A stretch of DNA of 64,000 nucleotides, taken from the NCBI GenBank assembly GCA_963840035.1, contig CAWIXE010000003.1, forward strand, positions 352,001 through 416,000, given 5' to 3'. Position 1 is the stretch's first letter. Every line of letters begins with the position of its first letter. This DNA comes from a candidate division FCPU426 bacterium (GTDB lineage Bacteria; Oederibacteriota; PGYV01; Palsa-1178). The position numbers and the translations under genes were made by a program. Under the pieces are notes generated by a model. It was not told the DNA's origin. It ran no database searches and saw only the letters and a program-made list of their open reading frames with translations. Positions 18,201 through 64,000 of this stretch are shown one piece after another.

Positions 18201-21200
18201 GCAAATGACGTGGACTGGATGGTATTTACGCTTTCCTCATTCGCGCAGGTTATCATAGAAACATCAGGCGTGCCGGCTGATACGCAGATGTGGCTCTACA
18301 GCGCGGCGGGTGTGCCGTTGACATATTTAAATTACGACGATGACAGCGGAAGCGGCGCGTATTCAAAGATAGAAGCCATGCTTGACGCGGGGACTTACTA
18401 TATAAAGGTGCAGGAGTTCGGGCAAAATGACATCGTTACCCAGTATTTTGTTGACTTAACCGTAATAGGCACGGACGTTTATGAAAATGATAATGTTTAT
18501 ACATCGGCCTCAACAATTACCAACGGGGAAACGCAGAATCACAGCATATACCCGGCAAACGACACTGACTGGGTGAAGTTTGATGTGGCTGTGACTTCCG
18601 TCGTGACTTTACAGACATCAGGCGACGGCTACGGCGACACTGTCATGTACCTGTATAATTCGGCGGGAGTGCCGGCTTCATACATGACATACGACGACAA
18701 CAACGGCGGAGTGCTCTGGTCGAAGATAACCGCCACGCTCGGGCCGGGGACTTACTATGTGAAGATAAACGAGAACGGCATGAACAGCCAGATAGGCCTG
18801 TATCATTTGACCCTTAATATGACGCAGTCTACTCCTACACCAACCTTTACCCCGCTTGTCGGGGATTCTTATGAAAATGACGACACATACACAAACGCTT
18901 CGGAAATATTAAGCGGGGTACAGCAGCAGCACTCCATACATACAGCTTCGGATGTGGACTGGGTCAAGTTTACCATCGACGCGAATTCGGTTGTGACTAT
19001 ATCCACTTCAGGGTTATCCGGCGACACGCAAATATACCTTTATAACTCGGCGGGCGTGCCGGGCACATACTACGCATACGACGATAATGGCGGCATAGGT
19101 TTCTTTTCGGGAATGACCAGGACTTTAACGCCCGGGGTTTATTACCTCAAGATACAGGAAAACGGGCAGAACGCGGTGATATCCTCATACTATGTCAGCG
19201 TGGATATCGGCGTAATCACGCCCACATACACTCCCACGGTTGTTTTAGGCGACTCTTACGAGGTGGACAATACATTTAACAACGCGAAGGTCATAGACTT
19301 AGGAACCACTCAGGCGCATTCCATACACGCCATGGGCGATGCTGACTGGGTAAAATTCACCGTGACGCAGGAATCAATAATCACCATTGAAACGTCAGGC
19401 TCGCTTTCAGACACTGAAATGTGGCTGTATGACAATCTCATGGTGCCAACGACACAGCTGGCTTATGACAATGACAGCGGCTCAGGGCTCTTCTCGGCGA
19501 TTACGCGGCAACTCGTGCCCGGTATATACTACATAAAAGTGGGCGAGTACGGCAATAACGCCACAATAGATAATTATAATATTTCCGTCAGCGCGCTGGT
19601 CATAACGCCGACACTCACGCCGACGCCGGCCATGGCTGACGCGTATGAAACAGACGACCTCTACACATCCGCGACATGGCTATATGAAGGCGCTGATCAG
19701 GAGCACAGCATACACACAAATACTGACACTGACTGGGTCAAGTTTACCATTGGCACCGGCGCTACAGTTGTCATTGAAACGTACGGAACGGCAGGGGATA
19801 CGATAATGAGCCTTTATAATTCCACAGACGTCCCGTCAACACCGATAATAACTTCAGACGGCGGAGGCACGGGGCAGTTCGCGAAAATATCATACGTGCT
19901 CCCGGCAGGAACATATTATGTTAAGGTACAGGAAAGCGGGCAGAACGCGGTGGTAGGGCAGTATTTCATAAAACTTTATGTGTCCCAGGACACGCCGACA
20001 GCTACTGCCACTAATACACCGGCATCCGGGGACGCGTATGAATACGACGGTACTTATCTCACGGCAAAAACAATTACAAGCGGAATATCGCAGATACACT
20101 CCATATTCCCGTCAGGGGACTCTGACTGGGTAAAGTTTGACGTAACAGGGCCTTCCACTGTCACGCTTGAAACCTCCGGAACCACAGGCGGAGACACGGT
20201 GCTTTACCTTTATAATGCGGCAGGGGCGGCGTCAGGCACATCCCTTGCGGTTAATGACGACGGAGGCACAGGTTACTGGTCAAAAATAACATACGCTATC
20301 ACAACGCCTGGTACGTATTACGCGCGCGTGGTGGAATACTCAAATTACTACACCATATCAAGCTACTACCTGTCGCTCACAATAGTCCCGCAGATGTCGC
20401 CGACGCAAACGCCGTATTACTCGCCGACGTCTACTGTGACGCCTTCATCCACTTCGACTGAGACTGAAGTTTACACCCCGACCGCGACTTCCACTGTTAC
20501 CATCACCATAAATGAAGCGGTTGATAACAGCGCGCTGGTATTTACAACCGCGGGCAACGCAGTGTGGGCCGGCATAACCGGGTTTGGCTATTCGGATAAT
20601 GATTCGGCAAAGAGCGGGGCCATAGGCGACAACATGCAGTCATACGTTCAGACAACAGTTGCCGGCCCTGGGTTGATAACATTCTGGTGGAAAGTTTCAA
20701 GTGATGCCGCTGATACGCTTACGCTTTATGACGGGAAAAATGTGATACAGTCCATAAGCGGCGATGTTGACTGGGAGCAGGTTTCTTACGCGGTACCTTC
20801 AGGTACGCATGCCATAAAATGGGAATATTCAAAGGACGCGTCTGTCTCCGGCGGGCTTGATACGGCCTGGCTGGATATGGTTGAATTTACTTACATGACT
20901 CCCACGGATACTCCGGAGATGACAGCTACTGCTACGCCGACATTTACAGTTACGCCTGCGCCCACAATAAGCATTCCCGAGGCGGTGGATAATTTCACCC
21001 TCACATATGATACCTATGGCGCGGCCCGGTGGTTCGGGGAGTCCGCGGTATCATATTACGGCGGGGACGCGGCCCAAAGCGGCGCGGCGGGCAACAGCCA
21101 GTATTCATATATGGAAACTAACGTAACCGGCCCTGGCGTATTCAGTTTCTACTGGAAAGTATCCTCGCAGTCAGGCGGGGATTACCTGCTGCTCTACATA

Positions 21201-22640: not shown

Positions 22641-24324
22641 TACGCCTGAAGTTGGATTATGGCACCAGGTGGCTGACGCGGCAGCGCCTCCGGGCAGCGG
22701 TTCGGCAAGCCCTTACGCGTGGTACTACGGTATAGACGGGGCTAATAATTACAATACCGGCGCGAGGACTTATGGCAGCATGGTTACGGGGAATTTCAGC
22801 GGGATTATGTCAGGTTCAACGCTGTCATTTTTAAGCTGGGCACAGACTGAGAATTCCATGTCAGTTGATCTAAGGCGGCTTTATGTGTCAACGGATGGCG
22901 GCGGAAGCTGGGGACTGCTCACTGACCTGCTGGGCAATGAGGAAATATGGTATCCGGTCAGTATAGACCTTTCAGCGTACTCGGGACAAAGCGTCATGTT
23001 CAGGTTTGAATTTGACTCGGTGGATGATTTTGCGAATGATTTCGTGGGCTGGTACGTGGATGATATCAGGGTAGTGATGCCGACCCCGACTGTTACAAAT
23101 ACGGTAATATTGCCGACCGCTACAGATACGCCGGTTTACAGCCCGACAGGTACAGCGACAAATACGCCGGTTTATAGCCCGACAGAAACATCGACTTACA
23201 CTCCTGTGGTCAGCCCAACATTTACAGAAACAAATACGCCTTTCCATAGCCCTACGGAAACATTTACACATACGCCTACAGCAAGCGCGACAGAGACGCC
23301 GGATGTAAGCCCCGCGTTTACGGAAACTGACACGCCTGTATGCAGCCCTACGGAAACACCGACAGATACTCCCGTGTGCAGTCCTACACAGACACCGACG
23401 ATTACGCCTGTGTTAAGCGCGACAAATACACCGGCATTAAGCCCCACAAACACGCCTGTTTACAGCCCGACAAATACGGCTACGGACACGCCTGTTTATA
23501 GTCCGACAAGCACGTCCACTAATACACCGGTATACAGCCCGACACAATCAGAAACTAATACACCGGTATACAGCCCGACACAATCAGAAACTAATACACC
23601 GGTATACAGCCCGACAGAATCAGAAACTAATACACCCGTATACAGCCCGACACATACAGCGACCGTACCAAGCGCTACAGTTACGCCTGTTGTCAGCGCT
23701 ACCGCTACAGGGACAAAGACAACCATAGCGAGCAGGACATTTACTCCGACAAAAACGGGGACGCCGACTATTTCCGCCACATATACGGCGACGGCTACTA
23801 TTACATCGACCGGTACAATGACAAACAGCCCGACACGTACATATACAGCGACTCCTTCCGCCACTCAGAGTAACACGACGACATCAACGGGTACGCACAC
23901 CAGGACTGCGACACTTACGGCAACACCGTCCCCGACATTTACGCCGACGGTCACAGCTACGCATAAGCCGCTATTTACCCAGACCGCTACATCAACGCCG
24001 GTTATGCCGACATTTACGCCGACACCTCAGCCCACGGCGCCTAACGCGGGCCGTTTAAGCTCATATGTTTATCCGCAGCCGGCGTCAAAACACCTGACTT
24101 TCGTTTACAGCCTGAAAAAATCGGCAGAGGTAAAAATAGTCATATATAACGTGGCAGGTATGGATGTTGCCGTGCTTTCAGTCATAGGGCAGGCGGTTGA
24201 TAATAATAAAGCATATTTAGACCTTGCCGGATTCGCGCCGGGGACATATTACTACACCATAAAAATAGACTACAGGACACAGCAGGAGACATATAAGCCC
24301 GCGAAGTTCCTGGTAGTAAAGTAG
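22591..24324 (+). CDS. +1-frame continuation of the giant protein: MAM-like jelly-roll domain, TNTPVYSPT repeats, T9SS type-A-like CTD
   Basis: Reads PTFTVTQTATATATATNTPEV directly from the junction; no signal peptide or RBS of its own; ends YVYPQP...IYNVAG...GTYYY...KFLVVK. Confidence 0.75.
   Translation, partial: PTFTVTQTATATATATNTPEVGLWHQVADAAAPPGSGSASPYAWYYGIDGANNYNTGARTYGSMVTGNFSGIMSGSTLSFLSWAQTENSMSVDLRRLYVSTDGGGSWGLLTDLLGNEEIWYPVSIDLSAYSGQSVMFRFEFDSVDDFANDFVGWYVDDIRVVMPTPTVTNTVILPTATDTPVYSPTGTATNTPVYSPTETSTYTPVVSPTFTETNTPFHSPTETFTHTPTASATETPDVSPAFTETDTPVCSPTETPTDTPVCSPTQTPTITPVLSATNTPALSPTNTPVYSPTNTATDTPVYSPTSTSTNTPVYSPTQSETNTPVYSPTQSETNTPVYSPTESETNTPVYSPTHTATVPSATVTPVVSATATGTKTTIASRTFTPTKTGTPTISATYTATATITSTGTMTNSPTRTYTATPSATQSNTTTSTGTHTRTATLTATPSPTFTPTVTATHKPLFTQTATSTPVMPTFTPTPQPTAPNAGRLSSYVYPQPASKHLTFVYSLKKSAEVKIVIYNVAGMDVAVLSVIGQAVDNNKAYLDLAGFAPGTYYYTIKIDYRTQQETYKPAKFLVVK
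23518..23654 (+). repeat. 36-bp coding tandem repeat (TNTPVYSPTQSE), ~3.8 near-perfect copies within a longer degenerate tract
   Basis: ACTAATACACCGGTATACAGCCCGACACAATCAGAA repeated. Confidence 0.85.
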
Positions 24325-45963: not shown

Positions 45964-48366
45964 GTGGCTGGCATAAATTTATACCCTAAAAAACTGGATC
46001 TCGCGTTTTATCATAAAAATTCCGAAGTTAATTACGACCCCACCAATAAATTCTACCAGGCCGCTTTTGAAATGCAGTTTGAAAAAGAAACGCATGATTT
46101 CATAGCCGGATTTGTCTCCTGTGCCGTAAATGACGATAAATTCAAGGACTTCGGGGCCCTTCCGCAGGATAAAAATATGACAACGCTTTATTTTGACCTG
46201 CTTTCCGATTTTAATAACGCCCAGTGGCCCAGGTATAACGCCTGGTACTACGGTGACAGGGTAAAAATGTACGGCAGGCTCAGAAAGATAATCATGAACG
46301 CGATACGCCAGCAAAAGGAGCAGAAGATAGACGACCTGGAATTTTTTGTGTGGGTTTCCGCAGCCACTGCCATAGCGCTCATAACAGAGGAGTACTTCCA
46401 GAAACATTTTGATACGCTTAAGATAATGAAGGACGCCCTGCTCCTGCGCCTGGGCTCCGCGTTTGAGGCAATGTTCGCGGAACTCTTCAGGGATGAGGAA
46501 ATTGACAGGCTCAGGACGGAAAAGACAGGCGTGGACAGAAAAAAGCTGGAACCGCTGGTAAACAGGTACATCATGATGTACTCCGATACCGCGGACATGT
46601 CGCATGTGGAGCGCATACTTTTTTCCAGGGACCGCTCGTTTTTTGTGGACCGGGTCCTGGCCGGAAAACTTACCTCCATGTTTGAGGCCGTGATAGAGGC
46701 TTCAAAACGGCTGAAAAAGAATGACAACATAAAAAACATCATATCGGACATGGGGGCCGTGCGCCTTATTTTATCCGACAGGCGCGACAGGGGCAACCTG
46801 CTGAAAATGATAGCCAAAGACAGGGAGTTCAAGGAAAAACTTGTAATAAAGCATGAAAAGTCCGTGATAAGGAAGGCTATACGCGACGTGGTGGCCGATA
46901 CCGGCTCAAGCGAACTCGTGAATTTTTTAAAACATGACGATGTCATAGACGATATCTTCCATGATAAAAAAGTGCGCAATTACATGGTAAAAACGTTAAA
47001 AACTGTGGGAAGCAAGAAGGCAAAGGATACGGCAAAATATGTGGAACTCGCCGCGGACAGAACCGCAAGAAGTATAAAATCTTTTTTTGGCGGGCTGCAC
47101 CCCAAGGAAATGGAGAAGCTTCTTAACGCGGCCATTGAGAATTTTTCCGCGTGCCAGCGGGCAATGAACAATTTTTACGCGGTCAGGCAGAAATACGGCA
47201 AGAAGTCGGCATACAGCGAGGAAATGCTCGGCGTGAAAATATTAAGACAGAGCAGGCTGACTACCGAAGCAAACCCTGAGACCGGCAGGGACTGCATAAA
47301 CTGCGGGGCCGTGCCCTCAGACCAGAAGACAAGGATTGAGAACCTGTATGAAGAAGGGAATCTATTTTATATACGAGAGGACGGGCCGGTATACCCGGGA
47401 CAGGCCGGGGTTGCCAGGGGTAAGAAACTTTTCATGTTCGCCGACCTGCGAAACTCCACGGAAACCACCATGAAGCTCACCAAGGACACGGCCGGGTTTT
47501 TAACCCCGTACTTAAACGCGGTTTTTCAGACTTCGGTGAAAAACTCCGGCAATGAGATATATTTCGCGGGAGACGGTTTCGCGGCGCATTATGCCAGGGT
47601 TACCGACTGCCTGCGTTCCGCATACCTGATACACAAGGAATTCGCGCAGTTAAGGAAGGAAGCTGAGGAGAAGATAAAGGCAAAGGAAAAGTCGCTCTTT
47701 AAGGAGCTTGTAAAGATAGGCGCCGTAAATACCGAGATGAAAGCGCAGAATTTAATGTCAATAGAGCATAATTCCCAGCCGGACGACATAAGGGATTTCC
47801 TGAATCTCATGATAAAAAAACCCCAGACAAAAGTGGAAGAGGCCCTGCATATGGTGGCGGGCGAATACTCCATGCCGCGTGTGGAGATAGGGATTGGCAT
47901 CACTGAAGGAGACCTTTTCTTCGCGGTAATCGGCGAGGAAAATAACGTCAGGTTCAACATTGTTTTATCCCCGAGCTTAACACAGGCAGCCAGGCTCTCA
48001 GGCTCGGCCGCGGAGGTAAAGGAATACCTGGAGAAATTATACGGTATAAAAAATATACCCCGAAAAGCTTACACACAGAATAAAAAGCTTTTTAACCAGG
48101 GCATAGTCATAACCCAGGAAGTATTCAAGACGTTAAGGAACGAGGTGGAAGTCTCCATGATAGAGGGAAACAAGATGGATCTGTCATATAACGTTTACTA
48201 CTACTTCGACACAGTGCTAGACAGGCACGTCACCTTATCCAAACTGGAACAGCCTATTGCTTTAAAGGGGATAGAAGGCGACGTGGAGGTCTTTGAGGTC
48301 TTCACGCCCGTAACCCAGGTGGATGCGTATGTGAATAATTATATAAAGAAGGAAAAGGGCGGGTAG
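45964..48366 (+). CDS. Large cytoplasmic protein with C-terminal divergent class III nucleotidyl cyclase-like domain
   Basis: MFADLRNST, YFAGDG, IGIGITEG, QAARL, LKGI...VEVFEV. Confidence 0.65.
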   Translation: MAGINLYPKKLDLAFYHKNSEVNYDPTNKFYQAAFEMQFEKETHDFIAGFVSCAVNDDKFKDFGALPQDKNMTTLYFDLLSDFNNAQWPRYNAWYYGDRVKMYGRLRKIIMNAIRQQKEQKIDDLEFFVWVSAATAIALITEEYFQKHFDTLKIMKDALLLRLGSAFEAMFAELFRDEEIDRLRTEKTGVDRKKLEPLVNRYIMMYSDTADMSHVERILFSRDRSFFVDRVLAGKLTSMFEAVIEASKRLKKNDNIKNIISDMGAVRLILSDRRDRGNLLKMIAKDREFKEKLVIKHEKSVIRKAIRDVVADTGSSELVNFLKHDDVIDDIFHDKKVRNYMVKTLKTVGSKKAKDTAKYVELAADRTARSIKSFFGGLHPKEMEKLLNAAIENFSACQRAMNNFYAVRQKYGKKSAYSEEMLGVKILRQSRLTTEANPETGRDCINCGAVPSDQKTRIENLYEEGNLFYIREDGPVYPGQAGVARGKKLFMFADLRNSTETTMKLTKDTAGFLTPYLNAVFQTSVKNSGNEIYFAGDGFAAHYARVTDCLRSAYLIHKEFAQLRKEAEEKIKAKEKSLFKELVKIGAVNTEMKAQNLMSIEHNSQPDDIRDFLNLMIKKPQTKVEEALHMVAGEYSMPRVEIGIGITEGDLFFAVIGEENNVRFNIVLSPSLTQAARLSGSAAEVKEYLEKLYGIKNIPRKAYTQNKKLFNQGIVITQEVFKTLRNEVEVSMIEGNKMDLSYNVYYYFDTVLDRHVTLSKLEQPIALKGIEGDVEVFEVFTPVTQVDAYVNNYIKKEKGG

Positions 48367-52846: not shown

Positions 52847-52850
52847 AAAT

Positions 52851-53105
52851 AATTCTGGATTCAAGATTCTGGATTTTGAATTGTATTTGTGAGAATTATA
52901 AAACATACCGTATATACAGGTTTTTTTGACGTCTGCATGCAAAATCCAAAATTTAGAATCCGGAATTGAGAATCAGCCCCCTATTAAAAGTTGACAAAAA
53001 ACTTCACGCCAGTTATAATGGTTAATAAGGACAATTCTAGATTCTGGATTCTAAATTCTAGATTGGTTGTATTAAGTACTTAATTTAGAATCCAGAATCT
53101 AGATT
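52851..53105. repeat. Two heptamer inverted-repeat elements (ATTCTGG family) bracketing a promoter
   Basis: Arms at 52851-52882/52943-52974 and 53033-53064/53082-53105. Confidence 0.75.
52991..53019 (+). promoter_or_regulatory. Sigma70-type promoter
   Basis: TTGACA-17 nt-TATAAT. Confidence 0.8.
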
Positions 53106-53120
53106 AAAACCGAGGTATAT

Positions 53121-55022
53121 TTGATGGCGAAGTTTTTACGTAAACTCAGCCTGGCTTTCATCATGTGCGTTATATTCTTTTCTGCGGCGCAGAACTTAAA
53201 CGCGGCTTGCAATCCTGTTATGGTAACATTGTGCGCGGCTGTGGATGACACCGCGATCATCTGGGTTAACTCCATGCAGGTAGGCTCCTTTACTTACGTA
53301 AACTGGAACCAGGCCGGTTATCCTAAATGTATTACATTTGCTGTTGACGATCCTAATTCAGCCCCGCCTGCGGATCCATGGGATGTCCCCATGTATGACG
53401 CGCCCTATGGCGCGAACATAGTCGCTATACAGGTGCAGAACACCAACTGCTGTGAGGTTTGGGGATCATGGTCCATGGACATACTCTGCGACACAGGCGC
53501 GCACGCTTACATGTCGTCTGACGACGGGGAAAACAGGATGTATAATAATTACGCCACGCCGGGACCGGCAAATACTCCGCCATACTGCCCTGAATTCTGC
53601 CTGACGCCGCCGCCAAATGACGGCGCTCTGACATGGTGGCATCATGACTATACACTGGCTAATCCATGGCCGACGCCCATTAAAGATACCGGGACCATAT
53701 GGGGAAAGCAGATATATCACCCGGGGACAGGGGCTCTGCTCAGGCCGCTTTCATACGATAGCAGCGGCACAGGGGAGCATCCTCCGGCGTACCTATACAT
53801 GAGGCAGGCGTATTACCTGACGCCGGCGCCGACACCATTGCCGCCGTTTTTTACCATTACAAAATCAGTCGTGGGCGATCCGCTTACTGTAAATACATCG
53901 AGCCAGGATATTACCTACATATTGCAGGTATGCAATACAGGGCAGCAGCCGGAATTGGGTAAATTGGTCGTAACAGACAGGCTTGATCCGGCTCTTGGTT
54001 TCGCAGGGTTGGTGGATGGAACGGGCAGCTGCGGCGAGGACTGGAAATTTGGGCCGAATTCTTGTGATAATAATCCAGCCCCGGGGTATATCAGGATTGA
54101 ATATCCAAGGGGTTTCCCAGGAGGCACTTGTTTAAATGTCACAATACGGGCACGCGACTGGTGGATCGGTCCGGACGATTTCTGCAAGGTAAGGTATAAT
54201 TACGCCGGCGTGCACTGGCCTTCAGGGGACTTTACGCCGAATATAACGCCGGATGCGGCTTCAAACACCGTGAACGTCACCATGTACTGCCCGGGGACGC
54301 CGACATTTACCCTGACTGTTTCGGAAACATGGACGCAGTCATATACGCGCACCATTACCATGACAAAAACGGCTACGCCGACAGTTACAATGACATCAAC
54401 CAGGACCAGGATACCTACATGGACTAACAGCCCGACAGAAGTTCCTACAGGCAGCACAATTACGGTTACTTTGACCAGGACTCTTTCAGCGACCCTTACA
54501 CCGACTATGTCATGGACCCCATCCGCAACGCCGACAGTTACCGTTACATACGTAAATATCATAGCGCTTGCCAAGTCCGAAGACTGCTGGGATATAAATT
54601 GTGAAGTGCCTCTGGGGGATACGGTTATATACTGCATAACATTTACGAACCTGCTTGACCAGCAGGCGTCTTTTACAATATGGGATACCATACCTGACGC
54701 CATGAATTTTGTTTCAGCGTCGGACGGAGGCCAGTTAATAACCTGGAACGCGGCCATAGTGCCGCCGAGGACCGCGCCGCTGAGGGGAATAGTATGGTCA
54801 TTGAAGGATGTGCCTCCCGTGTCGCAGGCGCCATATAACTGGGGCACAGTATGTTTTACTGTATGGGTGGCAAGGATAAGTTATGCGGGGCTTGATGAAA
54901 ACAGCTATAAATACGCCTATTATGATGATAAAAAGGAAAAAGTCACGGCGCAAAAATATTTTTCGCCGGCAAGGGATGAGGGATTGATCCGAGGCCCCGG
55001 AGGCGGAAGGGCAACCCCATAA
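53121..55022 (+). CDS. Secreted Cys-rich protein: N-terminal beta domain, one complete DUF11, Thr linker, C-terminal truncated DUF11
   Basis: Signal peptide; TITKS...VTDRL...YNYAG...ASNTVNV (complete); ALAKS...GDTVIYCITFTN...WDTIP...VCFTVWV (no final strands); start TTG 53121 or ATG 53124. Confidence 0.8.
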   Translation: MMAKFLRKLSLAFIMCVIFFSAAQNLNAACNPVMVTLCAAVDDTAIIWVNSMQVGSFTYVNWNQAGYPKCITFAVDDPNSAPPADPWDVPMYDAPYGANIVAIQVQNTNCCEVWGSWSMDILCDTGAHAYMSSDDGENRMYNNYATPGPANTPPYCPEFCLTPPPNDGALTWWHHDYTLANPWPTPIKDTGTIWGKQIYHPGTGALLRPLSYDSSGTGEHPPAYLYMRQAYYLTPAPTPLPPFFTITKSVVGDPLTVNTSSQDITYILQVCNTGQQPELGKLVVTDRLDPALGFAGLVDGTGSCGEDWKFGPNSCDNNPAPGYIRIEYPRGFPGGTCLNVTIRARDWWIGPDDFCKVRYNYAGVHWPSGDFTPNITPDAASNTVNVTMYCPGTPTFTLTVSETWTQSYTRTITMTKTATPTVTMTSTRTRIPTWTNSPTEVPTGSTITVTLTRTLSATLTPTMSWTPSATPTVTVTYVNIIALAKSEDCWDINCEVPLGDTVIYCITFTNLLDQQASFTIWDTIPDAMNFVSASDGGQLITWNAAIVPPRTAPLRGIVWSLKDVPPVSQAPYNWGTVCFTVWVARISYAGLDENSYKYAYYDDKKEKVTAQKYFSPARDEGLIRGPGGGRATP

Positions 55023-55025
55023 AAT

Positions 55026-55056
55026 AAAAAGGCGCGGCATAAAGCCGCGCCTTTTT
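55026..55056 (+). terminator. Intrinsic terminator
   Basis: A5-GGCGCGGC-ATAAA-GCCGCGCC-T5. Confidence 0.85.
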
Positions 55057-55399
55057 GTTTTATGGGGTTTGAAATAATTATTGCAGTATCCGACAGGATG
55101 CAGTCCTGGTACCATAAAAGCCGTAGTATAGTTTTCTTGCAGAGGCCGGATCATATCCGGCCAACAACCATTTTTATAATTGAAAATTGAAAATACTGAA
55201 TTGAAAATTTGTCTTTTAGTCCAATTCAGAACATACCTCTCCCAATAGCCGCCTTATAGTATAGAAAAACCAAAAATAAATCAATTTTCACTTGAATCAG
55301 TTCAAATTATTTTTCTAATATTCCATAAAAAGCAATAAAACGCTATAAAAATAAGGATAAAATACCGTATAAAATACTCGAAATAAGCCTGTTTCCGAA

Positions 55400-55428
55400 T
55401 TGACAAAATAGCTATCTGTTTGTATAAT
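55400..55428 (+). promoter_or_regulatory. Sigma70-type promoter for the 55590-64000 operon
   Basis: TTGACA-17 nt-TATAAT. Confidence 0.75.
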
Positions 55429-55589
55429 TAGTACTGGGAAATAGCTTAATTATATAGAGTTTTTTAGAATGAGGCAGAGGTCTCTAAATTATTATATCTC
55501 TGTCCTCGGAGTAGTGTAAGCATTTTTGATTTTATGTATTTTGTCAGTATCGAAGATAAGTAAAAAATTAAGTGAGGAGATGAGTTGAA

Positions 55590-56921
55590 ATGGAAAAGTT
55601 TTCCGCGAAATATAGTGTAATTCTGACAACAGTTTTAATAATATTTTTCGCGTCCGCGAATGTTTTTGCGGCAACTCTTTCCGTCTGCCAACCGTCGGGT
55701 TGCACATATAGCACAATAGCGGCAGCTTTAAACGCGGCTGCCGCGAGCGGAGATACGATCGTTATTTCCAGTAATATTTCTGAGGACTGCGCGATACCGA
55801 ACAATTTAAACAAAACTGTGGCGATTACATCCGATGGGACCAGAAGGACCTGGACAAACGCAGGCGGTTCGAATGTATCAATATCAAATATTGGCACATC
55901 GTGCAACCTGTCATTTTCAAACCTCGACATAGTAAATACCACTGGAAGCACAATGATGAACTTTACGAATTTCCAGCCCGGAACCACATTTAGTTTTATT
56001 AACTGTACCCTGAAGAATACAACACAGAGCGGAAGGCTTGTCGACCTGCAAAATGGAGGGTTCCTGAATTTTTACGAGTGCGAGCTTGTCGGAAACAACC
56101 TGACTTCGGAGGGGATACTGCTTGAATCCGGCGTGGGTTCGGGCAAAGGGCTGTATATGCAAAATTCCATAATAAGGGGCATATCAAACGGCAAAGCCCT
56201 GAATGACCAGTATGCCAGCGGCGCCAACGCGACACTCAGGAACTGCACCTTTGAGGGAAACAGCATCGCGATAGAAACCCAGGGCGCGCTTACGGTCCGA
56301 AACACACTTTTTATAAACAACACAAATGACTTAAATCTCACGAATATTAACGCCTGGGCTACCGCGGCGATGAACAGCGCGTACCAGTACTGCAGTTTCC
56401 ACGAACAGACCACAACGATATCGGACGGAGGAGCGCACGCCTGGACCGGTTATACGGGGAATATATTCGGCACTCCGAACACGATAGTACAGGATTATGT
56501 GAACCACAACCTGCACCTTGACTGCGGCGACACCGTCTATGCTGTGGATAAAGGCGCTAACATGTCCGCGTACTATACGGTGGACAAAGACTACATGCAG
56601 AGGCCGCAGGGAACCGCGTATGATATCGGAGCGTATGAGTGCCCGTCGCTTCAGATATCGAAGTCGGCAAATGTGTCCGCCGCGTACCTCGGTGATACGG
56701 TGACATACTGCATAACTTACACGAACAATTCCACGGATGACAAGGATACGGATATCTGGGACACGGTCCCGGGGAACATGGTGTTTTCTGGATGCGATAA
56801 TTCCTGCGACACGCAGGCGTACGGCATTTATAACGTGGTGCACTGGTACATAGCGCTCCCGCCGGGAGCGTATGGCACAGTGTGTTTTTACGCGAGGATA
56901 ACGGATTACGTAAGGCCTTAA
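55590..56921 (+). CDS. Secreted parallel beta-helix protein with choice-of-anchor-Q-like motif and C-terminal truncated DUF11
   Basis: YSTIAAALNAA..GDTIVI; AVDKG...RPQGTAYDIGAYE; QISKS...GDTVTYCITYTN...WDTVP...VCFYARITDYVRP*. Confidence 0.85.
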   Translation: MEKFSAKYSVILTTVLIIFFASANVFAATLSVCQPSGCTYSTIAAALNAAAASGDTIVISSNISEDCAIPNNLNKTVAITSDGTRRTWTNAGGSNVSISNIGTSCNLSFSNLDIVNTTGSTMMNFTNFQPGTTFSFINCTLKNTTQSGRLVDLQNGGFLNFYECELVGNNLTSEGILLESGVGSGKGLYMQNSIIRGISNGKALNDQYASGANATLRNCTFEGNSIAIETQGALTVRNTLFINNTNDLNLTNINAWATAAMNSAYQYCSFHEQTTTISDGGAHAWTGYTGNIFGTPNTIVQDYVNHNLHLDCGDTVYAVDKGANMSAYYTVDKDYMQRPQGTAYDIGAYECPSLQISKSANVSAAYLGDTVTYCITYTNNSTDDKDTDIWDTVPGNMVFSGCDNSCDTQAYGIYNVVHWYIALPPGAYGTVCFYARITDYVRP

Positions 56922-56951
56922 GGGCTAAATTTTTTTAAAAGGAGAACGCAT

Positions 56952-57683
56952 GTGAATGCAAGATGGGCGGCGGCAGTAAAAATCAAAACACATATTTATG
57001 TATTTATAATCATTCTGGCGATGCATTCTATTTCTTATGCTACTGCTTCGATTGTTAGTGTCACAACGAGCCCGAGCCCCGCGTGTGGGGCCGCTACGCA
57101 GACGATTAGTGTGACCGTTGTTTTTTCTGAAAATTCTGCGTGGCAGGCTGTTTATGGAGCGGTTGTTTTTTCTGCAGATGCTTCTTGGACTAGCTCAGAT
57201 ACTTGGGCGGTAGGAGGTACAGGATGCGACCCGTGCTGCGACGGGGCGCTTTGGGGAACTGCGGGGGGCACTGTTCCGCAGACTTTTACCTGGGCAGGTA
57301 ATGTAACAATACCCAGCGGGTCATTTACACGTATGCTTATAGCAACACATACTGGGACACAATACAATTGCGGCAGTGATGGTTCCGCCATGACGTGGAT
57401 TGTATTTTCGCCTTCATGCAGCCCCATCACATCAGTAAATAAATCAGCGGATAAAACATCCATGTATGTGGGAGATACTGTGTCGTTCTGTCTTACCACG
57501 ACAAATACCGGCGGGTCAAATTATACTTTCAATATGTGGGACACGGTGCCGGCAGGACTGACTTATCTGGACTGCAGCGATTCTTGCACGTATTCGGGAG
57601 GAGTCGTGTCCTGGACGATTACAAATCTCGCCGGCAGCAGTGCGGTGACAAGGTGTTTTCGGGCAACGGCTAATACCCCGTAG
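56952..57683 (+). CDS. Small secreted protein: Cys-containing N-terminal domain plus C-terminal truncated DUF11
   Basis: AGGAG RBS, signal peptide; SVNKS...GDTVSFCLTTTN...WDTVP...RCFRATANTP*. Confidence 0.85.
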   Translation: MNARWAAAVKIKTHIYVFIIILAMHSISYATASIVSVTTSPSPACGAATQTISVTVVFSENSAWQAVYGAVVFSADASWTSSDTWAVGGTGCDPCCDGALWGTAGGTVPQTFTWAGNVTIPSGSFTRMLIATHTGTQYNCGSDGSAMTWIVFSPSCSPITSVNKSADKTSMYVGDTVSFCLTTTNTGGSNYTFNMWDTVPAGLTYLDCSDSCTYSGGVVSWTITNLAGSSAVTRCFRATANTP

Positions 57684-57749: not shown

Positions 57750-60700
57750 ATGAATACAAACAGGCTAACCGCGGTAAAGAGCGGGATAATGCTGTTTGTA
57801 TTATTGTTTCTGATGCTGTTTCATGGCAGCGCGCTTTTTGGAGCGACCCTTGTTAGCTTCACATCAAACCCTTCTCCGGCGTGCGGCGCTGCAGGACAGA
57901 CTATCTCGCTTACCACGGTTGCAATAAGCGGTACATATACTACTATTTCGTACACTATAATGTTCTCGGCTGATACTACAGCGGGAAACGCAGGAGATGT
58001 ATATGTTGTTGGAACTAATTGCGCAAACGGCAATGCAGCTCTTGGAACTGAAAACGCTCCGGCGGTAAATATTACAAAAGTAGATACTGTGACTATACCT
58101 GCAGGAACATTTAATTACATAATAGTAACTTTAACTGATAATAATGGCAATGGCTGTTCCAATAAAGGGCAGATTGCGTTTACCACCGCATGCGGGCCGA
58201 CAAATACAACGACGGTTTCTCCTACTATCACACCTACGCCTACACCTACAAGGATATTTATCAGCAATACCGGATACGCGGACGGAAAAGCATCCAACAG
58301 CGTCAGTGTCGAGATCCTGCTTGTCGCCGGGCCGCCGACGAACACGCCTTCGATCACGCCGACGTATACCATAACGCAGACAGTGACGCCGACCGTCACG
58401 AGGACCATCACGCCGACCATCACGCTGACCGCGACAGATACATTTACCAGGACTATCACGCAGACTATTACGCAGACCAGCACGCAGACCGTTACACAGA
58501 CTACTACCCCGGTATTTTCCCTCACCATGACCATGACCGTTACCCAGACAGCCACGCAGACGGTGACCAGGACAATAACGCAGACGATAACGCAGACGAT
58601 AACACAGACGATAACACAGACGATAACGCAGACAATAACCGAGACTGTGACGCGGACCATATCTCCGACGTGGACCAACTCGCCGGATAACAGCATGACA
58701 TTTACACCGACGGCCACGCCGACTTCGTTCCCGGCATGTATTTTTTCGGATTATTTTAATAACGCATCATTTGACGCCTCAATATGGAACACCGCGAACG
58801 TCGGTGCCGGGTCCAACGGCAGCCAGGCGGAGTCGGGGAACCTTACCATTACTGCGCAGGGCGGGGACATTGCGGGTACGGCGGATTCGTTCTATTACAT
58901 TTATCAGAAGACCAGTTCGGCAAACCTCGACATAAGGTTCCGTGTCACTGCGATTGGCAGCCAGTGGAACTCAAGGGTAGGTATCATGATCAGGGAGTCA
59001 ACAGCTGCTAATTCGGCTTTTGCTTCCATAAACATCAATAATAACAGCCACGATGACATTTCTCAGCAAAGGGCCTCGACAGGCGCCGGTGTATCATCGA
59101 GCGACCACTATAACGGTGGCAACTACTTAAGGATGGTAAAGACCGGGAATCAGATAATAACCTATGATTCTCCTGACGGTATTACATGGAATATACAGCA
59201 GACATATAATTTCGCATCATTTGCAAGTGATTATACTGTGGGAATTGTTGCAACTTCAAACACGGGCAGCAATAACACCTTCAGCGGGCAGGATTTCCAT
59301 GTTCAGACTGGCGCCTGCGGAACCCCGACGTTTACTGCAACTCCTACAAACTCAAACACATATACAGTCACATATACGCGCACAAACACACCGACTATTA
59401 CCGTGACTTATTCCAGTACATATACAAGGACTATAACACCTTCAATAACCCCCACATTTACGATAACCCCGCGTACCATTGGTAATATCGCAAATACAAG
59501 GTTTGGCCAGTCAAATAACGTGCTTGTGGCGGTATTTACGCCGACAGGCGCAATAGCCACAAATACCTTTACTGCTACGCGCACATCCACACCCACAGGC
59601 ACGCCCACGGCGACAAGGACATATACTGCGTCAGTTACCCCTACAGGGGTGCAGAACGTGGGTAACTGGGATTACGGCCAATCCAACTTTGTTGGCCTCA
59701 TTATAGTAACACCTACATTCACGGCCACCATAACTGTTTCACCAACCGTAACACCCTCATTTACATTTACCTACACAATAACCAGGACACCAACCTTTAC
59801 AGTAACACAATCAGTTACGGTCAATAATACAAACACGGTAACTGTCACGGGGACGCCATCGGTTACTCAGACTTTGACGCCTACATATACAACTACCGTA
59901 ACGCAGACTGTGACCCCGACTATAACGCAGACTATGACCCAGTCTGTAACCAGGACTATAACCATTACTGTGACGCAGAGCGTAACGCAGACTGTAACCA
60001 CGACCATATCGCAGACTGTGACGCAGACGCTCACACAAACAGTGACACAGACAGTGTCGCAGACGGTAACTCAGACAGTGTCGCAGACAGTCACGCAAAC
60101 GGTTACGCCAACTACATCGCCGACTTATACGCGGACTATAACTTTGACCGCGACCCAGACCGTGACGCAGACCATGACCCAGACCGTTACGCAGACGTTG
60201 ACGCAGACTGTTACAACGACAATAACACAGACCGTCACACAGACGGCGACTCAGACTATAACTCAAACAGCGACACAGACGGCAACGCAGACCGTGACAC
60301 AGACCGCGACTCAGTCAATAACGCCTACGACATCGCCTACGTTTACCCAGACCGTCACACAGACAGTAACGCAGACAGTGACGCAGACAGTGACACAGAC
60401 AGTGACACAGACGCTGACGCAGACAGTAACTCAGACTGTGACACAGACGGTAACGCAGACGCTGACGCAGACAATAACACAGACGGTAACGCAGACGCTG
60501 ACGCAGACAATAACACAGACGGTAACGCAGACGCTGACGCAGACTGTGACGCAGACAGTAACGCAGACGCTGACACAGACAGTAACGCAGACGCTGACAC
60601 AGACAGTAACGCAGACTGTAACACAGACACTGACGCAGACGGTAACACAGACACTGACGCAGACGGTAACACAGACAGTGACGCAGACCGTATCGCAGAC

Positions 60701-63700
60701 AGTAACACAGACGCTGACGCAGACAGTAACACAGACAGTGACGCAGACAGTAACGCAGACAGTGACACAGACAGTAACGCAGACTGTGACTCAGACTGTA
60801 ACACAGACGCTGACGCAGACAATAACACAGACGCTGACACAAACAGTGACGCAGACAGTGACACAGACAGTGACACAGACGCTGACGCAGACAGTAACTC
60901 AGACTGTGACACAGACGGTAACGCAGACGCTGACGCAGACAATAACACAGACGGTAACGCAGACGCTGACGCAGACTGTGACGCAGACAGTAACGCAGAC
61001 GCTGACACAGACAGTAACGCAGACGCTGACACAGACAGTAACGCAGACTGTAACACAGACACTGACGCAGACGGTAACACAGACACTGACGCAGACGGTA
61101 ACACAGACAGTGACGCAGACCGTATCGCAGACAGTAACACAGACGCTGACGCAGACAGTAACACAGACAGTGACGCAGACAGTAACGCAGACAGTGACAC
61201 AGACAGTAACGCAGACTGTGACTCAGACTGTAACACAGACGCTGACGCAGACAATAACACAGACGCTGACACAAACAGTGACGCAGACAGTAACGCAGAC
61301 AGTGACACAGACAGTATCGCAGACAGTAACGCAGACGCTGACGCAGACAGTGACACAGACAGTGACGCAGACAGTAACACAGACAGTAACGCAGACAGTA
61401 ACTCAGACCGTAACACAGACACTGACACAGACGGTGACACAGACAGTAACGCAGACAGTGACGCAGACAGTATCGCAGACAATAACACAGACGCTGACAC
61501 AAACAGTGACGCAGACAGTAACGCAGACAGTGACACAGACAGTATCGCAGACAGTAACGCAGACGCTGACGCAGACAGTGACACAAACGGTAACGCAGAC
61601 AGTAACGCAAACAGTGACACAGACGGTAACGCAGACGCTGACGCAGACAGTGACGCAGACAGTGACGCAGACAGTATCGCAGACGGTAACACAGACGCTG
61701 ACGCAAACAGTGACACAAACTGTAACACAAACTGTAACGCAGACTGTTACACAAACAATAACACAAACAATAACACAAACAATAACACAAACAATAACAC
61801 AAACAATAACACAAACAATAACACAAACAGTGACTGAGACAGTAACTCAGACAGTGACACAGACAATAACGCAGACTGTATCTCAGACAGTAACACAGAC
61901 GTTGACGCAAACAGTAACACAGACTGTAACACAGACTGTATCGCAGACGGTGACACAGACTGTAACACAGACGCTGACTCAGACAGTGACACAAACTGTA
62001 ACACAAACGATAACGCAGACAGTGACACAGACAGTATCGCAGACGGTAACGCAGACTGTGACTCAAACTGTGACTCAAACTGTTACACAGACAATAACGC
62101 AAACATTGACACAGACTGTCACCCAGACTGTAACGCAAACTGTGACACAAACTGTATCGCAGACTGTAACGCAGACTGTGACTCAAACTGTTACACAGAC
62201 AGTGACACAGACAGTAACGCAAACATTGACCCAGACTGTCACGCAAACTGTATCACAGACAGTAACGCAAACGTTGACACAGACAGTGACGCAAACAATA
62301 ACACAAACAGTGACTGAGACGGTAACACAGACGCAGACACAGACAGTGACACAAACTGTAACACAAACGATAACGCAGACTGTGACACAGACAGTATCGC
62401 AGACGGTAACACAGACTGTGACACAGACAGTATCGCAGACGGTAACACAGACGGTAACACAGACTGTGACTCAAACTGTTACACAGACAGTGACTCAAAC
62501 TGTTACACAGACAGTGACTCAAACTGTTACACAGACAGTGACTCAAACTGTAACTCAAACAGTAACGGAGACAGTAACACAGACAGTGACGCAGACCGTT
62601 ACGCGAACAGTAACTGAGACAGTAACCCAGACTATGACACAGACAGTAACGCAGACAATTACACAAACAGTAACGCAAACGTTGACGCAGACAGTAACTG
62701 AGACAGTAACGCAGACTGTTACACAAACAGTGACACAAACAGTGACACAAACAGTGACACAAACAGTGACACAAACAGTGACGCAGACAGTGACGCAGAC
62801 AGTGACGCAAACAGTAACTGAGACAGTGACACAGACCGTTACGCGAACAGTAACTGAGACAGTAACCCAGACTATGACACAGACAGTAACGCAAACAGTG
62901 ACCCAGACAGTCACCCAGACTGTCACACAAACTGTATCACAGACAGTTACGCAGACGATAACTCAGACAGTAACTGAGACAGTAACACAAACGTTGACGC
63001 AGACAGTAACACAGACAGTGACGCAGACGGTGACGCAGACAGTGACGCAAACAGTAACTGAGACAGTGACACAGACCGTTACGCGAACAGTAACTGAGAC
63101 AGTAACCCAGACTATGACACAGACAGTAACGCAAACAGTGACCCAGACAGTCACCCAGACTGTCACCCAGACTGTCACCCAGACTGTCACCCAGACTGTC
63201 ACCCAGACTGTCACCCAGACTGTCACCCAGACTGTCACCCAGACTGTCACCCAGACTGTCACCCAGACTGTCACACAAACTGTATCACAGACAGTTACGC
63301 AGACGATAACTCAGACAGTAACTGAGACAGTAACACAAACGTTGACGCAGACAGTAACACAGACAGTGACGCAGACGGTGACGCAGACAGTGACGCAGAC
63401 AGTAACGCAGACAGTAACGCAGACAGTGACACAGACAGTGACGCAGACAGTGACACAGACAGTGACGCAGACAGTGACACAGACAGTGACGCAGACAGTA
63501 ACACAGACCGTTACTCAGACTGTAACTGAAACAGTGACACAGACAGTGACTCGGACAGTAACGCAGACAGTAACTGAGACAGTAACGCAGACAGTGACAC
63601 AGACAGTAACGCAGACCGTTACTCAAACAGTAACACAGACAGTGACGCAGACAATCACACTGACGGTGACACAAACAGTAACGCAGACAGTTACTCAAAC

Positions 63701-64000
63701 AGTAACACAGACAGTAACACAGACAGTGACACAAACAGTAACACAAACCGTTACTCAGACAGTAACTGAAACAGTGACACAGACCGTCACACAGACTGTA
63801 ACTGAGACAGTAACACAAACAGTAACGCAAACTGTAACAGAAACTATAACCCAGACCGTAACGCAGACCGTAACGCAGACCGTAACACAGACCGTAACAC
63901 AGACCGTAACTAAAACAGTCACGCAGACTGTAACTGAAACCATAACGCAGACGGTAACGCAGACCGTAACGCAGACAATGACACAGACCGTGACGCAAAC
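57750..64000 (+). CDS. Giant secreted scaffold/stalk protein (>2083 aa, runs off window; missing from ORF track): N-terminal domain, three DUF11-strand peptides, ConA-like lectin domain, QTVT repeat
   Basis: AAGGAG RBS, ATG 57750, signal peptide [31 protein letters not shown]; frame read open to 64000; [18 protein letters not shown]...GIMIRES...SPDGITW domain at ~58730-59320. Confidence 0.88.
59898..64000 (+). repeat. 12-bp coding minisatellite encoding (Q-T-V/L/I-T)n, over 300 units in window
   Basis: CAGACAGTRACR-type unit; nearly pure from ~60350; smaller block at ~58370-58660. Confidence 0.95.

Follow-up and report, generated by a model that had tools for sequence, protein, structure and literature searches.

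The window analysed here is a stretch of 64,000 nucleotides from a candidate division FCPU426 bacterium (assembly GCA_963840035.1, contig CAWIXE010000003.1, positions 352,001 to 416,000 of the forward strand). Four neighbouring genes, designated A to D, lie on its plus strand. The term catcher is used below for a truncated CLIPPER (DUF11) domain, and the term tag for an isolated hairpin between linkers.

52991..53019, plus strand: putative promoter before gene A, a perfect sigma-70 consensus (12/12 match; consensus only)
53121..55022, plus strand: gene A, 633 aa, with a signal-peptide-like start (by eye), a domain of unknown function of about 200 aa, a full-length CLIPPER-like domain, a Thr/Pro linker and a C-terminal catcher
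53850..54290, plus strand: internal full-length CLIPPER-like domain of A, Lys at 53862 and Asp at 53976, its own last two strands kept (by eye)
54555..54878, plus strand: catcher A (truncated CLIPPER), Lys at 54573, Asp at 54684, Cys pair at 54633/54852
55026..55056, no strand assigned (minus strand in the search output): hairpin of 13 bp with A/T runs, behind gene A
55400..55428, plus strand: putative promoter before B-C-D, a perfect sigma-70 consensus (12/12 match)
55590..56921, plus strand: gene B, 443 aa, with a signal-peptide-like start, a payload of about 325 aa ending in a choice-of-anchor Q motif, and a C-terminal catcher; no export domain
56646..56918, plus strand: catcher B, Lys at 56661, Asp at 56760, Cys pairs at 56709/56883 and 56793/56805
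56952..57683, plus strand: gene C, 243 aa, with a signal-peptide-like start, a domain of about 125 aa and a C-terminal catcher; no export domain
57426..57680, plus strand: catcher C, Lys at 57441, Asp at 57540, Cys pairs at 57489/57654 and 57573/57585; predicted seven-strand sandwich
57750..64000 and on to G000:C3:426015, plus strand: gene D (scaffold), 5,421 aa, with a signal-peptide-like start, two small domains, three hairpin tags, a stalk and an export end
58257..58322, plus strand: tag 1, a hairpin isolated by Thr/Pro linkers on both sides, with its Asn at 58266 (residue 173 of D)
59475..59540, plus strand: tag 2, Asn at 59484 (D residue 579)
59646..59708, plus strand: tag 3, Asn at 59655 (D residue 636)

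Judging from its sequence, the hairpin after gene A is likely a terminator dividing A from B-C-D. The internal CLIPPER-like domain of A gave a weak TIGR04226 match (E 4.9e-5, below the cut-off), and the 125-aa domain of C shared 34% identity with the first domain of D. The stalk of D, which is long and likely exposed at the cell surface, consists of Thr-rich tetrapeptide repeats, with two FlgD_ig matches and a Por_Secre_tail domain at its end. No Pfam family was found for the payloads of A, B and C, with just sub-threshold lectin-like leads for A.

An earlier note on this DNA had described three terminal domains truncated at the same strand, and its coordinates, Lys codons and common signature for A, B and C were reproduced. 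It had placed two of the stops 8–10 residues past the CF of the signature, which is correct for B (10 residues) and incorrect for C (7 residues); gene A, which lacks an export C-terminal domain, runs on for 54 residues. All three domains passed the TIGR01451 cut-off. With the Pfam DUF11 profile, C passed at 35.6 bits over positions 3–86 of 114, positions 87–114 being absent, B was borderline (21 bits in one search and 24.7 in another), and the terminal domain of A gave no match. The common endpoint is not due to chance, because it recurs in 7 genes of the source genome and in 68 genes of 22 relatives. The tail of A had been considered unrelated; tails of 15–57 residues were found in 67 of the 75 truncated domains, 36 of the 75 with a common acidic-aromatic motif, and B and C are among the tail-less exceptions.

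Decay, frameshifts or assembly errors might be suspected from the highly repetitive adjoining gene, at which the contigs of many relatives break. Against these stand the same endpoint in 75 genes of 23 genomes and the signature of purifying selection (pS 0.71 versus pN 0.18, 16 pairs), which agrees with the selected subfamily proposed earlier. The missing strands, which the earlier note would have taken as a sign of pseudogenisation, were not seen by eye in any frame behind the three stops. C and D are in frame but parted by three stops and a new signal peptide, which also rules out read-through of C into D. Conservation across independent assemblies had already refuted decay and assembly error, and next to no credence is given to this explanation.

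The solved CLIPPER structure 9IFR is a nine-strand domain (residues 708–828) with a Lys715–Asn806 bond and an Asp nearby, according to PMC12617251. Its reactive Asn lies beyond the endpoint of the truncated domains, so this structure does not end at the same strand. The catcher profile matched 9IFR at E 1e-4, with the invariant Lys on the 9IFR Lys and the Asp on the Asp of the same strand. These correspond to residues 10 and 44 of the aligned chain, the latter being Asp749 by offset from Lys715/Cys818 and Asp-748 in PMC12617251. Lys and Asp are 33 residues apart in B and C and 37 apart in A, compared with 34 in the aligned 9IFR chain. A phmmer search of the PDB with C alone returned nothing under E 0.14. 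The predicted model of catcher C contained seven strands (pLDDT 94.9) rather than a nine-strand CnaA-like sandwich in one chain, and A, B and C stop or become tail before the strand of the reactive Asn. Foldseek superposed this model on 9IFR with a TM score of 0.83 by query and 0.60 by target and an rmsd of 2.0 Å; no Foldseek match fell under E 0.001. Given the high AlphaFold confidence for the catcher alone, the domain may be stable unpartnered.

In all 75 truncated domains of the 23 genomes, selected with a profile favouring Lys and Asp, both the Lys and the Asp were present (75/75 each). Among 41 intact domains of the lineage, the Lys was kept in 35, the Asp in 39 and the Asn in 34. The Cys pair was complete in 52 truncated domains, absent from 23 and never represented by a single Cys (n = 75); its first Cys was seen in none of the 41 intact domains. 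The pair is not essential to truncation, because 23 of the 75 domains lack it. In a quick tree, the 52 Cys-pair domains formed one branch (SH-aLRT 93), as the clade anticipated by the earlier note would; the truncated domains as a whole required three label changes, and a single origin of all catchers was not supported there.

Stretches resembling the segment missing from the catchers were recognised on gene D. Catchers span columns 2–87 of the intact profile, and tag cores align to columns 93–118, Asn on Asn, with a score of 19.0 (P 2e-4) that none of 60 column shuffles matched (maximum 10.6). The match to a first, small intact set was weak (P 0.011), and a generic CLIPPER profile of greater depth gave no match to the tags (P 0.65 and 0.46), although lineage-specific profiles did match. 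The tag profile also picked up the own hairpin of one intact domain (G006:C181). A motif-free scan of 96 Thr-rich ORFs of the source genome yielded 13 islands in 11 ORFs, among which 6 were Asn hairpins, all located in the 4 genes that follow catcher genes; the tag profile gave exactly 6 matches over this genome. The first Asn was present in 37/37 aligned tags, an invariance partly built in by a seed pattern that demanded Asn, and in 16/16 further divergent tags read by eye, of which 1/16 kept the later S-N. Tag cores showed a pS of 0.73 (saturated) and a pN of 0.14. Judged from these rates and those of the truncated domains, both halves, catchers and tags, are under purifying selection. The reactive residues are thus split over two genes, with Lys and Asp on A, B and C and the Asn hairpins on D.

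Gene order pointed to the same partnership. The loci collected held 71 truncated domains, 10 of them at contig ends or gaps; in the 61 informative cases, the gene behind the truncated domain bore a tag in 53 and no tag in 8. When the 8 loci collected through a tag match were left out, a tag gene followed in 45 of 53. Catcher and tag numbers were equal here and in L005 (3:3) and in L009 and L023 (2:2); L009 has neither a C-like gene nor tag 1, and in L007 tag 2 is present while the B-type catcher belonging to it lies on a different contig. Chains were short, of two steps at most (L012, L017, L028, L029). Catcher and tag distances were correlated (mirror r 0.73, reached by 0/5000 within-genome shuffles), as a common operon history would also predict. 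In 7 of the 8 loci with several partners the assumed pairing came out on top, by a narrow margin in two of them; in L023 it was beaten. The likely pairs are C with tag 1, B and its paralog on contig C1 with tag 2, and A with tag 3. A contig scan with three sequences found 7 loci. A search of protein representatives returned 50,199 matches dominated by long multi-CLIPPER proteins and was uninformative on the spread of the truncated form; among the long proteins listed, at least 645 matched domains were internal and at least 2 lay near a C-terminus.

The truncated domain might instead be a stand-alone seven-strand module, braced by disulfides and binding carbohydrate or another surface partner, the hairpins being relics of a gene split or serving another job. 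The high-confidence seven-strand model is compatible with this, as are the CBM2 cellulose-binding domain (TM 0.69) that Foldseek ranked first by E-value, the 8 of 61 catchers without a tag gene behind, and the seven to nine strands reported for DUF11 models (PMC12617251). An AlphaFold2 single-chain model of a natural tag-linker-catcher-tail segment left the tag undocked (pLDDT under 50); this tag lies upstream of the catcher and is probably non-cognate, and 4 of 57 alignment rows spanned both parts. However, 9IFR fits the model of C better than CBM2 does, and relics would not retain a low pN where pS is saturated, an unvarying Asn or copy numbers following those of the catchers. Some tags occur with no catcher next to them (L056, L059), and lone catchers share sequence types with paired ones; both fit pairing at a distance. 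The stand-alone module is considered quite unlikely.

Open beta edges often self-associate, and the edge could be closed by the C-terminal tail described above, widespread and partly conserved in motif, or by a second catcher, rather than by gene D. This arrangement appears very improbable, given that 8 of the 75 catchers are tail-less, that an N-x-small motif occurs in 13/75 catcher tails against 38/41 intact domains, and that the tags would be left unexplained. The one tail modelled, in the AlphaFold2 segment, was a low-confidence helix (pLDDT 50–62) and no strand; a tail acting as a placeholder strand found no support.

The sequence itself shows the truncation, three residues divided between two genes, the order of the genes and equal numbers of catchers and tags, and together these led us to propose split-CLIPPER docking. 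In this proposal, which we consider probable, a naturally split CLIPPER docks the passengers A, B and C on the scaffold D through an enzyme-free Lys–Asn bond. Sec would export all four proteins, as judged from signal peptides recognised by eye. A hairpin of D would then fill the open edge of a catcher, thereby completing the fold, and the reassembled Lys-Asp-Asn triad would react as it does inside an intact CLIPPER, with an isopeptide bond as the probable outcome. Disulfides would likely brace the incomplete domain until capture. The undocked tag of the AlphaFold2 segment and the lack of a match between tags and the generic CLIPPER profile count against this proposal, as do artificially split domains, of which two of four reacted (PMC5487036). 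The earlier reading is partly supported: truncated domains do sit on different payloads, in line with its dockerin-like handle, and it lacked both the partner on the next gene and the isopeptide chemistry.

In chaperone-usher pili, strand complementation is non-covalent, and catchers and tags could likewise pair without a bond, leaving passengers exchangeable. The genomic pairing evidence fits this equally well, the bond is absent from some DUF11 domains (PMC12617251), and split isopeptide pairs made by design can combine tight binding with a slow reaction (bioRxiv 10.64898/2026.08.13.744004). Nevertheless, the three residues are kept more strictly in the split form, the Asn in 53/53 tags, than in intact domains, while the adjacent S-N is freely lost, and selection should not hold a buried Lys that does not react. 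Non-covalent pairing is therefore regarded as unlikely.

Covalent docking would provide passengers with a stalk and surface retention, because A, B and C lack the type IX-like C-terminal domain that D possesses. In the source genome, an export-domain motif ended 0/7 catcher proteins and 4/4 tag proteins, and payload paralogs (59% and 33% identity) were fused to their own stalk and export domain. The C-terminus of D matched Por_Secre_tail (PF18962, 28.7 bits) and TIGR04183 (23.1 bits, at the cut-off). Searches for the type IX machine found an SprA-like frame of 2,177 aa below the cut-off, 39 PorV-family matches and a PorU-model match over the C-terminal ~170 positions only; GldM and GldN searches gave no match, and their controls were equally silent. 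If the link formed in the periplasm, a step about which our judgement is evenly balanced, passengers would also be carried across the outer membrane; a literature search turned up no relevant example of piggy-back export by the type IX route. On a broader and tentative reading, which we consider somewhat improbable, a family of naturally split, mutually selective CLIPPER pairs would build covalent branched or chained surface assemblies in this lineage without a ligase. In the periplasm, passengers lacking an export signal would attach to a mucin-like scaffold with several tags and then ride with it through a type IX-like translocon, with gene-level swapping through separate promoters and lone paralogs. 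Such a system would parallel the cellulosome in covalent form and offer a ready set of orthogonal protein glues.

The closest known relative is the CLIPPER/DUF11 domain itself (PF01345, 9IFR), with the same fold core, Lys and Asp positions and type of Asn-bearing final hairpin. As described in PMC12617251, its bond forms within a single chain and the domain usually occurs as repeats in adhesin stalks, whereas strands 1–7 and strands 8–9 are encoded here by different genes. Split isopeptide domains are widely used as laboratory tools: in SpyTag/SpyCatcher and SnoopTag/SnoopCatcher (PMC5487036), a large part and a short peptide rejoin and cross-link without enzyme. The engineered pairs were cut mostly from CnaB-type or RrgA domains, whereas the predicted pairs are natural and CnaA-like: the catcher supplies Lys and Asp, an internal tag of two strands supplies Asn, and a genome holds several sequence subtypes. 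DogTag/DogCatcher is reportedly another engineered pair of this kind. The literature searches made here found no natural split isopeptide tag-catcher system. Should the pairing hold, bacteria have arrived at this device by evolution and use it to assemble surface complexes from genes under separate regulation. This would account for how proteins without export domains could reach and stay on the cell surface, and would provide dozens of naturally evolved pairs of catchers and short internal tags, whose several subtypes make them candidates for orthogonal ligation. Both parts are small, an 85-residue domain and a 20-residue peptide, which would make a test of the central claim cheap.

In the cellulosome, a long scaffold with several docking sites holds separately encoded passengers through a small terminal docking module (cohesin-dockerin). 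The present locus has the same layout of a long scaffold with several sites and separate passengers with a terminal module. Pfam searches of A, B, C and residues 1–817 of D gave no cohesin or dockerin match. In contrast to the cellulosome, the scaffold carries the small element and the passengers carry the folded domain, the predicted link is covalent, and A, B and C yielded no identified catalytic domain. In donor-strand complementation (chaperone-usher and type V pili, archaeal thread filaments), an incomplete Ig-like domain is completed by another polypeptide through a terminal single strand, and polymers are built, mostly with the help of a chaperone, usher or protease; in the present case a stalk protein offers the donor as a hairpin inside its chain. 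Natural autocatalytic intermolecular isopeptides, in which side chains of different polypeptides are cross-linked without an enzyme, occur in the HK97 capsid and reportedly in A-ENA sporesilk; these are homopolymer lattices or fibres of unrelated folds. In contrast to both, the proposed device is a portable split domain that joins different proteins.

Three genes of the window each end in a truncated DUF11 domain, and a fourth, gene D, carries three isolated asparagine hairpins, hereafter tags 1 to 3.

53121-55022, plus strand: gene A, truncated domain at the gene end
55590-56921, plus strand: gene B, truncated domain at the gene end
56952-57683, plus strand: gene C, truncated domain at the gene end
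From 66 bases past gene C to G000:C3:426015 (contig C3 of this genome, G000): gene D, 5,421 residues, 44% Thr
58266, 59484 and 59655: asparagine positions of the hairpins of gene D

The Lys codons and shared signature of the A, B and C domains agreed with the description in the earlier note. All three domains passed TIGR01451, the DUF11-type repeat model, and the Pfam DUF11 match in C spanned only positions 3-86 of the 114 in the profile. In this genome, intact DUF11 domains go on with an Asn-x-small strand and then a second strand; aligned to a profile of intact domains, the truncated domains occupied columns 2-87. The earlier note had also let two of the domains stop 8-10 residues past the Cys-Phe pair, which was correct for B (10 residues) and not for C (7 residues), with A running on for 54. 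This tail of gene A occupies window 54879-55022. Across 75 truncated domains, 67 carried a C-terminal tail of 15-57 residues after a conserved Pro, and most loci of relatives contained such a tail (for example, L012:6241-6330). A short acidic-aromatic motif occurred in about half of them; among the seven truncated domains of G000, five were without a tail. The tail may act in chaperoning, retention or as a turnover signal.

DUF11 is the CLIPPER domain, for which a structure has been solved (9IFR). Residues 708-828 of this structure form nine strands, and within them a bond joins Lys715 to Asn806, the catalytic Asp being nearby (PMC12617251). When a profile built from 51 truncated domains was aligned to 9IFR, the invariant Lys fell on the bond Lys and the invariant Asp on an Asp in the corresponding strand, residue 749 by offset and 748 in PMC12617251. 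The C domain was modelled by AlphaFold2 with seven strands (pLDDT 94.9), and Foldseek placed this model on 9IFR with an rmsd of 2.0 Å and a TM of 0.83 when scaled to the query or 0.60 when scaled to the target; no row of the search reached an E of 0.001, and a CBM2 domain (TM 0.69) had the lowest E-value. The profile alignment and the model together indicate that, of the three reactive residues, the truncated domains carry two and are without the pair of strands bearing the third. The window domains derive from CLIPPER and are not complete CLIPPERs.

At its end, gene D has two FlgD_ig matches together with a Por_Secre_tail domain, and near its start, amid Thr/Pro linkers, lie the three isolated stretches of approximately 20 residues each. 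The low-complexity stalk of D is unusually long, at its length as assembled; approximately 4,300 residues of Thr-Gln-Thr-Val-type tetrapeptide repeat extend from window ~60000-64000 on to G000:C3:~424800. A motif-free scan of 96 Thr-rich ORFs of the genome yielded 13 such islands, spread over 11 ORFs. Six of the islands were Asn hairpins, located in D and in three genes of contig C2 that sit directly after the genome's other truncated domains, and a tag profile search of the genome gave exactly six matches. On contig C1, a B paralog makes up the seventh truncated domain, which had no adjoining scaffold.

Tag cores aligned with columns 93-118 of a profile of 41 lineage domains, Asn on Asn (P 2e-4), and their score was equalled in 0 of 60 shuffles. 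The match to a profile of 18 intact domains was weak (P 0.011), and a generic profile of 272 domains gave no match (P 0.65 and 0.46). The lineage-profile match and the generic-profile miss thus support a putative homology of the tags to CLIPPER strands 8-9 within the lineage only. A second subtype was also observed, in which the truncated domain is without the Cys pair described in the earlier note and the tag itself carries two Cys, one of them right after the Asn; its loci are L002 (G000:C2:1205855-1220258), L026, L053, L054, L060, L062, L066, L068 and L070. The two tag Cys could lock the hairpin.

Thirty other genomes were searched, and 80 stretches were fetched. Of the 23 genomes that share the family or order of G000, 21 had a terminal truncated domain, as did one of seven from other parts of the phylum; the two of the 23 without one are a genome with 61% completeness and a genome in which a contig ends in a tag gene. 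For 71 truncated domains in loci, a tag-bearing gene was next in 53 (45/53 when eight loci fetched via a tag hit are omitted), none was next in eight, and ten were cut off by contig ends or gaps, with one row of this tally assigned from a separate reading of the locus. L056 and L059 hold tag genes without an adjoining truncated domain. We regard it as improbable that the truncated domain is a stand-alone module, the eight domains without a neighbouring tag gene notwithstanding. Where several genes cluster, catchers, as the truncated domains are termed here, matched tags in number, at 3:3 in L005 and 2:2 in L009 and L023; in L009, both the C-like gene and tag 1 were missing. L007 contains tags 2 and 3 with the A-like gene alone adjoining, and its genome has a B-type domain on a different contig. 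Middle proteins that combine a tag with a truncated domain occurred at L012:4948-6330, L017:7203-8435, L028:1735-2949 and L029:1343-2644, which suggests two-step chains of three proteins.

Lys, Asp and the following Pro were invariant across the 75 truncated domains, and of the 41 intact lineage domains, 35 had the Lys, 39 the Asp and 34 the Asn; this contrast is an upper bound because the selecting profile favours these residues. The first Asn was present in 37/37 aligned tags, a count to which the seed pattern itself contributed. By eye, it was also seen in all 16 additional divergent tags recovered as islands, just one of which kept the later S-N. Docking of catcher on tag by non-covalent contact is thus held to be unlikely. 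Among 16 orthologous pairs, truncated domains had a pS of 0.71 and a pN of 0.18; the corresponding values were 0.73 and 0.14 in tag cores and 0.61 and 0.20 in tag flanks. Past the stops of A, B and C, all frames were read by eye and nothing resembling the missing strands was seen, so that the frameshift raised in the earlier note was not found, and decay of the domains is scarcely credible. An isopeptide domain is split across neighbouring genes, selected and lineage-wide.

The Cys pair, proposed as a signature, proved to be linked and not universal, with both Cys together in 52 of the 75 domains, both gone in 23 and a single one in none; a second Cys pair was present in 56. The expected clade of truncated copies held for the 52 Cys-pair domains, which formed a single branch in a quick tree (SH-aLRT 93); a single origin of all truncated domains did not emerge from that tree, on which they together need three label changes. 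The Cys pair thus represents one gain, not several.

Catcher similarity followed tag similarity (r 0.73; equalled in 0 of 5000 within-genome shuffles), although shared operon history would give the same correlation. In the window, the nested pairing C-1, B-2 and A-3 was the best of six (0.48 vs 0.32), and the assumed pairing came top in seven of eight multi-partner loci, by a small margin in L005 and L017; in L023 it failed. When AlphaFold2 was run on a natural segment in which a tag precedes a truncated domain, the tag, probably non-cognate and with few alignment rows joining both parts, was left unplaced (pLDDT under 50), and the tail formed a weak helix. This model argues against easy docking in that setting. 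Closure of the open edge within the truncated protein itself is very unlikely. On sequence grounds, catchers A, B and C probably dock covalently on the tags of D.

A C-terminal export-domain motif was found in 0/7 truncated proteins and 4/4 tag proteins of G000. Paralogs of the payloads occur in one-protein form, joined to a stalk and an export domain of their own; identity was 59% in one pair and 33% in a second. In L001 (G000:C2:1652726-1657321), the ORF of an unsplit paralog opens inside the first domain and has no in-frame signal peptide; it may be frameshifted or broken near the start. In G000, the PorV family gave 39 matches and the export domain 40, and a SprA-like frame scored below the cut-off; GldM, GldN and the PorU body were not found, the GldM/GldN controls being silent too. 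These matches and misses make a type IX-like, non-canonical export route likely, possibly a reduced or divergent system outside Bacteroidota. Bacteroidota type IX substrates fold in the periplasm ahead of export, according to the available part of PMC10202324. Such folding would leave time for a catcher to capture its tag and for possible co-export of the passenger with D.

Gene A has its own perfect promoter consensus upstream and a hairpin downstream, and B, C and D have another promoter consensus in common; the passengers could therefore be regulated apart. Intergenic gaps at window 52850-53110 and 55170-55215 are full of short imperfect seven-base repeats in inverted arrangement. The payloads of A, B and C matched no Pfam family; that of B has a choice-of-anchor Q motif, and that of A gave lectin-like leads, all sub-threshold. 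The payload domain of C and the first domain of D share 34% identity.

Elsewhere in the window, an 800-aa protein (45964-48366) without a Pfam match at E 0.1 adjoins type II secretion/Tad-like membrane genes, and its C-terminal third resembles, by eye, a class III nucleotide cyclase domain. A 3,470-aa vWA/PPC/Kelch surface protein (12228-22640) overlaps, in another frame, a 660-aa frame (22342-24324) with a Por_Secre_tail domain at its end and a PorV-family gene behind it; the two frames may belong to a single frameshifted gene or form a coupled pair.

No natural split isopeptide domain was found in the literature searched, mostly without subscription journals, and the main text of PMC7031533 on Goldbacteria, as far as available, contains no match to DUF11 or dockerin. 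The layout is like that of the cellulosome, without cohesin or dockerin matches in Pfam for A, B, C or the first 817 residues of D. The arrangement in the window would work like the engineered tag/catcher pairs described in the available parts of PMC5487036 and bioRxiv 10.64898/2026.08.13.744004.
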